From Prorocentrum cordatum (Eukaryota), in NCBI GenBank assembly GCA_963575745.1, contig CAUYUJ010000081.1:310001-374000 (forward strand): a stretch of 64,000 bases of DNA, written 5' to 3'. The notes under the pieces were generated by a model that worked only from the letters and a program-made list of their open reading frames with translations, searched no databases and was not told the DNA's origin. The translations under genes were made by a program, and so were the position numbers. This document shows positions 312 through 53,669 of the stretch, piece after piece. The stretch's first letter is position 1; every line of letters starts with the position of its first letter.

Positions 312-53669
<53,358 letters not shown>

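Follow-up and report, generated by a model that had tools for sequence, protein, structure and literature searches.

The 22-mer resembling the dinoflagellate spliced leader (dinoSL) that is carried by both long terminal repeats (LTRs) of a Copia element is a vertically inherited, strongly conserved, DNA-templated piece of the LTR leader, and not a freshly added spliced leader (SL). The reading that we favor, with a probability that we place a little short of even, is that the 22-mer is an inherited leader element of the LTR and that its likeness to the SL arose by chance. As such an element, the 22-mer would belong to the promoter-proximal region or the 5′-leader of the genomic RNA, where the leader region may set the start of the RNA or control the translation of a small ORF of 77 codons (ORF77) and then of gag, and purifying selection at the RNA or DNA level would keep the 22-mer in place. 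We regard the likeness to dinoSL as coincidental, since prasinophyte green algae, in which the family appears to live, are not known to have such an SL.

The element lies in a stretch of DNA of 64,000 nucleotides, the whole of which is referred to here as the window. In the 5′-LTR the 22-mer occupies positions 48090..48111 and reads TCCGGAACTGTGTTGGCTCAAG on the minus strand (48111..48090), and in the 3′-LTR it occupies positions 40669..40690 and reads TCCGGAACTGCGTTGGCTCAAG on the same strand (40690..40669), which are exactly the letters and the positions given by the original prediction. Aligned without gaps to the reference dinoSL, DCCGTAGCCATTTTGGCTCAAG, as printed in excerpts of PMC5585692 and PMC6050394, the 5′-LTR copy matches at 17/22 positions, including the last 10 nt, so that our recount agrees with the earlier one, and the 3′-LTR copy, in which T11 is changed to C, matches at 16/22 positions. 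The likeness is composed of 10 contiguous nucleotides and 7/12 of the remaining positions, with the first four and the last 10 letters equal to those of the SL. The exact match, TTGGCTCAAG (10 nt), has a chance expectation of 0.15 per window and stops 9 nt short of the ATG of ORF77. Both copies indeed show the predicted arrangement, in which the 22-mer is followed by a 9-nt spacer (GCCCACACG, 48081..48089 on the minus strand, in the 5′-LTR; GGCCACACG in the 3′-LTR) and then by ATG GGC AAG. An identity as an SL RNA gene was considered and rejected, as the 22-mer is followed by GC in the 5′-LTR and by GG in the 3′-LTR, neither of which is a GT donor, and an ORF begins 9 nt further on.

The element is a decayed, old and frameshifted Ty1/copia-like retrotransposon. 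The two copies of the 22-mer had been assigned to a pair of LTRs, and this assignment stands in that the repeats are true LTRs and both contain the 22-mer, but the LTRs are larger than had been implied and the one at the 5′-side is interrupted. Self-comparison, in which the repeat pair exceeds 450 nt around the motif, places the 5′-LTR at 47824..49279 of the minus strand, where 735 nt of LTR sequence are split by an insertion; the 3′-LTR (40403..41133, minus strand) is 731 nt long and uninterrupted, and the 22-mer corresponds to positions 444-465 of this 731-nt LTR. The two LTRs are identical at 702/731 positions when the insertion is excluded (96.0%; K2P 0.041). They are flanked by a 5-bp target-site duplication, CTTTT (49280..49284 and 40398-40402, minus strand); a candidate primer binding site, GGTTATGAGCCCAACC (47808..47823, minus strand), is located directly 3′ of the 5′-LTR, and a polypurine tract, GAGCGAGGAGGAG (41134..41146, minus strand), directly 5′ of the 3′-LTR. 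Direct LTRs with a short target-site duplication, a 16-mer resembling a primer binding site, a polypurine tract and an RVT_2 domain are features by which a Ty1/copia element is recognized, and all of these are present; an integrase upstream of the RVT_2 domain, in the order gag-PR-INT-RT-RH, is a further one. The 16-mer looks as if it could pair with an internal part of initiator tRNA-Met, namely the anticodon stem-loop, and not with a tRNA 3′-end, and such an internal match would presumably imply half-tRNA priming of the copia type.

The coding part of the element, likewise on the minus strand, begins with a gag-side ORF (47128..47847), the ATG of which (47847-47845) is located 24 nt before the end of the LTR, and with a gag-region ORF containing a CCHC zinc knuckle (45599..47413; PF00098, E 5.5e-05). 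Two Copia-type reverse transcriptase (RT) ORFs (41238..43453), which close the element on its 3′-side, match RVT_2 (PF07727), the one at 41238-42470 with E 4.4e-09 and 36.7 bits (cut-off 31.6) and the one at 42512-43453 with E 1.2e-03. In the frameshifted middle ORFs, between the CCHC knuckle on the 5′-side and RVT_2 at the 3′-end, Pfam searches returned no match to rve or to a protease even at E≤1. A middle ORF of the minus strand (43514-45166), at the place where an integrase would be expected, contains about 11-12 tandem 18-nt units (TCCTGGTCCCTGACCTCC on the plus strand; window positions 43760-44031), which encode a 6-residue acidic repeat. The insertion in the 5′-LTR (48272..48992, 721 nt), which the 3′-LTR lacks, is palindromic and foldback-like, with a self inverted repeat at 48326-48997 that is 91.9% identical over 688 nt; its arms contain satellite units of the CCAAGAGGCCCC type, its center and one of its ends share a repeated segment of 55 nt, and TTT is possibly duplicated at its junctions. 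Base pairing between the 22-mer and the primer binding site gave a value (-23.2 kcal/mol) that 38/2000 shuffles reached, but it was discarded as evidence, as other segments of the LTR pair better (-26).

ORF77 (77 codons plus TAA) lies wholly inside the LTR, at LTR positions 475-705, and is found on the minus strand at 47847..48080, with a second copy at 40426-40659. Its stop codon overlaps the gag-side ATG in the sequence TAATG (47845-47849), and this overlap suggests that gag may be translated by coupled termination-reinitiation or by leaky scanning. Variants of the overlap occur among the relatives, namely TGATG, apparently, in an X2 contig, where it was read off a 30-letter loose end, and AAATG in P0001; in the latter the stop codon is replaced and the frame of ORF77 continues over the gag start and through the region of the primer binding site, which is the same LTR-end context. 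Judged from protein searches, ORF77 is a real, conserved small protein family: its relatives are 29-71% identical to it, and 13 family proteins were seen, two of which are named. The relatives fall into P0001/P0010/P0011, P0004, P0002/P0012, P0009/P0014, P0005/P0013, P0006 and P0007. Two further candidates, P0003 and P0008, proved to be repeat proteins, and these spurious matches were set aside. ORF77 has no match in Pfam or in the Atlas, and its AlphaFold model, which consists of two helices with a mean pLDDT of 67, was too weak for a fold search. The oddities of the family are this small conserved LTR-encoded ORF, whose stop codon overlaps the start of gag, and a leader block that is more conserved than the ORF.

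Conservation was measured from the proteins of relatives that read through the 22-mer region and from the contigs of runs X2, X3 and X5. The read-through forms SGTVWLK (the 21-nt form), SGTVLAQG and SETVLAQD represent one DNA string in two frames; P0009, P0012 and P0014 read MPPPATGQFM-SETVLAQD-CT-MVAKP, and P0011 has the 21-nt form, from which G12 is missing, a deletion also found in contigs of X3 and X5. Among the 22-mer letters that can be determined in the relatives, 35/36 are equal to those of the window. The ORF77 of the relatives that have kept the 22-mer is 49-70% identical, the determinable nucleotide letters of ORF77 are 74-86% identical, and at the rate of the ORF one mismatch or none in the 22-mer has P = 0.0028. 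The 22-mer is, on these reconstructed letters, more conserved than the adjoining ORF77, and the conservation is at the nucleotide level, because one lineage translates the 3′-half of the 22-mer as WLK, whereas others translate it as LAQ.

A comparison of the 22-mer with its flanks had been proposed as a check, and with respect to ORF77 its outcome was positive; the 30 nt upstream of the 22-mer are as well conserved as the 22-mer itself. In comparison with the loose end of an X2 contig, 17/20, 17/19 and 20/22 determined letters of these 30 nt are retained among the relatives, and the stretch reads MPPPAxGQxx in three protein clusters. Because the upstream 30 nt are equally conserved among the relatives, the supposed 5′-end of the SL is not a boundary of homology. 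One X2 contig breaks at exactly 48111, and we attribute this break to divergence of the window copy's own upstream sequence. In the relatives the conserved non-coding block spans at least 52 nt, with the 22-mer at its 3′-end and the ATG of ORF77 8-14 nt beyond. The spacer lacks such conservation, and its length, as deduced from the read-through proteins, is 8, 9 or 14 nt. Beyond these relatives, the ORF77 pattern had 487 matches in metagenome contigs, of which 0 were confirmed, and the 22-mer pattern had 0 matches in genome contigs; neither the RT of the element nor that of its relatives was found in viral contigs. The 22-mer pattern did occur at three metagenome-contig loci, none of which aligns to the element by blastn, and these occurrences were taken as chance.

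The read-through proteins also bear on the reading, which we consider improbable, that in intact members of the family the small protein starts at the conserved upstream ATG (MPPPA...), 30 nt before the 22-mer, that the 22-mer would then belong to an N-terminal extension of ORF77, and that the window copy has lost both this ATG and the reading frame. In four clusters (P0011; P0004; P0009/P0014; P0012) the frame that opens with MPPPAxGQxx does cross the 22-mer and enter ORF77, the three length solutions (21 + 9, 22 + 14 and 22 + 8 nt) are all in frame, and in an X2 contig the conserved block opens with ATG CCG CCT CCG. This agreement in frame is, however, subject to ascertainment, as proteins can be called only when the parts are in frame. 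Both LTR copies of the window are out of frame (22 + 9 nt) and have no upstream ATG, and the alternation of WLK and LAQ in the 3′-half means that the conservation is not at the level of the protein.

Within the family, the variants of the 22-mer are G5 to A, T11 to C and the loss of G12, none of which is nearer to the SL, and the five non-SL letters are fixed in the two LTRs, in the contigs of the three runs and in three protein lineages. It is unlikely that the LTR is still being supplied with fresh SL, as repeated copying of trans-spliced RNAs would be expected to re-install the canonical SL, which is not seen in the copies. These observations weigh on the proposal that the 22-mer is active at present, either as an SL mimic, in which case the RNA would begin at the 22-mer and look SL-capped, or as an SL-compatible R region, in which case minus-strand strong-stop DNA made from trans-spliced RNA would anneal to the 3′-LTR via the 22-mer. 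We regard an active role of either kind as highly improbable, as regular copying of SL RNA predicts the canonical SL in young copies, whereas the non-SL letters are fixed family-wide. The strong conservation of the 22-mer at the nucleotide level would fit such a role, as would its agreement with the SL at the first four and last 10 letters, which are the ends relevant to strong-stop pairing, but the 22-mer departs from the SL in the Sm-like AUUUUGG, contigs of X2, which we guess to be an RNA run, reach 50-200 nt upstream of the 22-mer, and an SL-bearing host is doubtful.

The score of the match carries little weight by itself. A scan of the window returned zero sites with three or fewer mismatches to the SL, and no canonical SL. 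At least one 17/22 match was present in 31/300 dinucleotide shuffles, and 196/3000 permuted-SL decoys reached this score on the real window; because shuffles and permuted-SL decoys often reach 17/22, the score alone is not significant. In the 150-nt zone before the ATG of ORF77, a zone that was picked after the fact, 17/22 was reached by 0/5000 decoys. The string GGCTCAAG is over-represented in the window (9 occurrences, 3.0 expected), and as five of these occurrences lie in or beside the local CCAAGA-type satellite, by which the element is also flanked, this satellite-linked excess inflates SL-like scores. The same string is a recurrent one-letter variant of the satellite core GGCCCAAG, and a 10-11-nt CCCCAAGAGGC-type satellite surrounds the element and recurs in the window (40001-40347, 48868-49376, 61.8-64 kb and 12305-12602).

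The window holds a second 17/22 match to dinoSL, TCCGTAACCGCTTTAGCTCCAG, on the plus strand at 38597-38618, in which four of the five mismatches are transitions. A short ORF with an ATG comes after it on the plus strand, then low-complexity sequence of the (GACC)n type and, about 250 nt downstream, an A-rich tract, CAAACAAAAAAAC. The region from 38597 to about 38875 looks like a small retrocopy, with no paralogue or clear duplication to confirm it. Two independent 17/22 matches were obtained with 11/3000 decoys and in 1/300 shuffles.

SL-like strings are also found at the start of a degenerate L1-like LINE (about 6400-10494, minus strand), which has an ORF1-like frame from 10370 and a weak match to RVT_1 at 7381-7842. 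Its ORF1, which is broken by in-frame stops, comprises a coiled coil followed by an RRM-like part, and endonuclease and RT motifs are present in shifted frames; inspection by eye revealed no target-site duplication of the LINE. The leader of the LINE includes, at 95-117 nt before the ATG of ORF1, TTTAGATGGCTCAAGGCTTTCTGGCTCAAG, which contains the last 9 nt of the SL, TGGCTCAAG, twice, 15 nt apart (10494..10465, minus strand), and in the corresponding 150-nt zone the 16/22 score of the LINE is reached by 4/5000 permuted-SL decoys. After this pair, the leader continues with (AG)n and then with three GGTCTCACGTACA-like repeats. In the model of Slamovits and Keeling, re-splicing at the internal AG of the SL reportedly gives rise to a truncated DinoSL relict 15 nt long. 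A string of 11 nt, TGGCTCAAGGC, is common to the leaders of the Copia element and the LINE, whereas the SL accounts for only 9 of these, and a host promoter motif common to both would fit this likeness as well; the first of the two LINE strings has no likeness to the SL past 9 nt.

These strings enter into the rival reading of the 22-mer as an ancient SL fossil, which we hold to be tenable but, taken as a whole, doubtful. It supposes a dinoSL-bearing host, a dinoflagellate or another alveolate, in which trans-spliced RNA of the element (SL, short 5′-UTR, ORF77 and onward) was reverse-transcribed once, via aberrant strand transfer, whereby the SL would have entered the LTR, been copied to both ends and then been inherited as ordinary LTR sequence; its 5′-half would have decayed and its 3′-half been kept, perhaps in the promoter or leader role that has been proposed for the DinoSL relicts of retrogenes, and the adjoining LINE would have gained its SL strings likewise. 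Such relicts are known for retrogenes from the parts of PMC5585692 (Song et al., 2017), PMC6050394 (a review) and PMC12014239 that were available, and in the first of these sources a relict is recognized by an exact DinoSL match of at least 9 nt that lies no more than 500 bp ahead of an ORF, compared with which the 22-mer has an exact match of 10 nt at 9 nt before an ATG. The order of SL, 9 nt and ATG is moreover the layout of the 5′-end of a dinoflagellate mRNA, SL-like strings precede the first ORF of both retroelements of the window, as the decoy counts for the two zones indicate, and the 15-nt spacing of the LINE strings, the plus-strand match at 38597-38618 with its mostly transitional mismatches and A-rich tract, the strong conservation of the 22-mer and the high load of simple repeats in the window can all be counted on the same side. 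Against a fossil stand the named relatives, which suggest a green alga, the absence of the canonical SL from the window, the five identical non-SL letters in all variants of the family, and the 30 nt that the relatives conserve upstream of the putative start of the SL; the 11 nt common to Copia and LINE, together with the first LINE string being SL-like over 9 nt only, point the same way. No younger or other copy of the element approaches the canonical SL, and homology does not start at the SL as it would at a retroposition junction, although such a start is not strictly required of a relict borne by an LTR. A fuller version of this history, in which the host was a dinoSL-bearing alveolate, the fossil lies in the R region or leader of the Copia element with its 3′-half selected as a promoter or leader signal, and the tandem strings of the LINE are fossils of the same kind, is in our judgment somewhat unlikely.

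The two readings first offered for the 22-mer, a self-encoded SL mimic and a fossil of SL addition, both presuppose a dinoflagellate host. The signals as to the host conflict, with green-algal labels on one side and the SL strings of the LINE and the load of repeat arrays on the other. Both named relatives of ORF77 (2/2) among the 13 family proteins carry the label ‘Pyramimonas sp.’ in EukProt, and no relative belongs to a dinoflagellate set. The ESM-Atlas cluster nearest to the RT (score 0.97) is labeled Eukaryota, and its only phylum label, on one member, is Chlorophyta, so that a single data set and a single cluster member supply the green-algal labels. A search for SL trans-splicing in Pyramimonas found no report, and its matches were, by title, papers on euglenids and dinoflagellates. 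Pfam recognized no host gene among 161 (23 + 138) further ORFs of the window, and the window contains no Rfam family and no tRNA. Short-period arrays (period ≤9) make up 18.3% of the window, whereas, in excerpts of the respective papers, repeat arrays are given as about 25% in the dinoflagellate Polarella (PMC7245778) and as 0.7% in the prasinophyte Cymbomonas (PMC10675990, table 1); in this respect the window resembles Polarella more than Cymbomonas. Long microsatellites of the window include (ATC)n of 2.1 kb, (TAC)n of 1 kb, (TCA)n of 1.6 kb and (TGTGTGCG)n of 2.2 kb, at sites that include 13621-15770, 18234-19195, 26561-28184 and 51324-53554. The array load, the strings of the LINE, the match at 38597-38618 and the 10-nt match of relict length are the evidence that speaks against coincidence, and coincidence of an inherited leader element with the SL is nevertheless the reading that we prefer.

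In yeast Ty1 and Drosophila copia, the start of gag falls within the 5′-LTR, the leader holds cis-signals, and copia uses internal priming by initiator tRNA. The present element resembles them in its order of LTR, primer binding site, gag (CCHC), RVT_2, polypurine tract and LTR, in its 5-bp duplication, in the ATG of gag within the LTR and, presumably, in an internal primer binding site that resembles initiator tRNA-Met, but it differs from them in the additional 77-codon ORF, which precedes gag in the LTR and is joined to it by TAATG, and in an integrase and protease that are undetectable in this decayed copy. SLACS, CRE and CZAR of trypanosomatids are non-LTR elements that insert site-specifically into SL RNA genes; they share with the present element a tie between a retroelement and spliced-leader sequence, but the 22-mer is not part of an SL RNA gene and no GT donor follows it. 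DinoSL relicts upstream of dinoflagellate retrogenes are said to have been described by Slamovits and Keeling in 2008. The 22-mer is like such relicts in being a DNA-encoded partial SL shortly upstream of an ORF with its 3′-part (TTGG...CTCAAG) best kept, and unlike them in lying inside both LTRs of a retrotransposon and not at the head of a retrocopied gene, in having upstream sequence that is conserved in relatives and in having no copy nearer to the canonical SL. LTR elements with additional ORFs are described, in the parts of the sources available, from bdelloid rotifers (PMC5408684) and from Drosophila, where the ORF is upstream of gag (bioRxiv 10.1101/2025.03.14.642691); to judge from these excerpts, the present element likewise has an accessory small ORF beside gag and pol, but ORF77 is encoded by the LTR, and so occurs twice per element, and it could be assigned neither to a Pfam or Atlas entry nor to a fold.

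A literature search on SL together with LTR or Copia elements in dinoflagellates found no paper on SL relicts in LTRs, and the term ‘spliced leader’ has 0 occurrences in a paper on Copia elements of S. microadriaticum (PMC5776459). If the 22-mer were nevertheless a fossil, the family would be the first case among LTR-retrotransposons in which an SL relict has become fixed and domesticated, the 22-mer would mark the past passage of the RNA of an LTR element through trans-splicing, and the family would offer a testable case of an R-dependent element that survives where the 5′-end of every mRNA is replaced, and with it a direct view of the coexistence of LTR elements with universal trans-splicing. 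If it is not a fossil, as we are inclined to think, the finding is a caution that a likeness of 17/22 to a famous leader can arise in the conserved LTR leader of an unrelated host.
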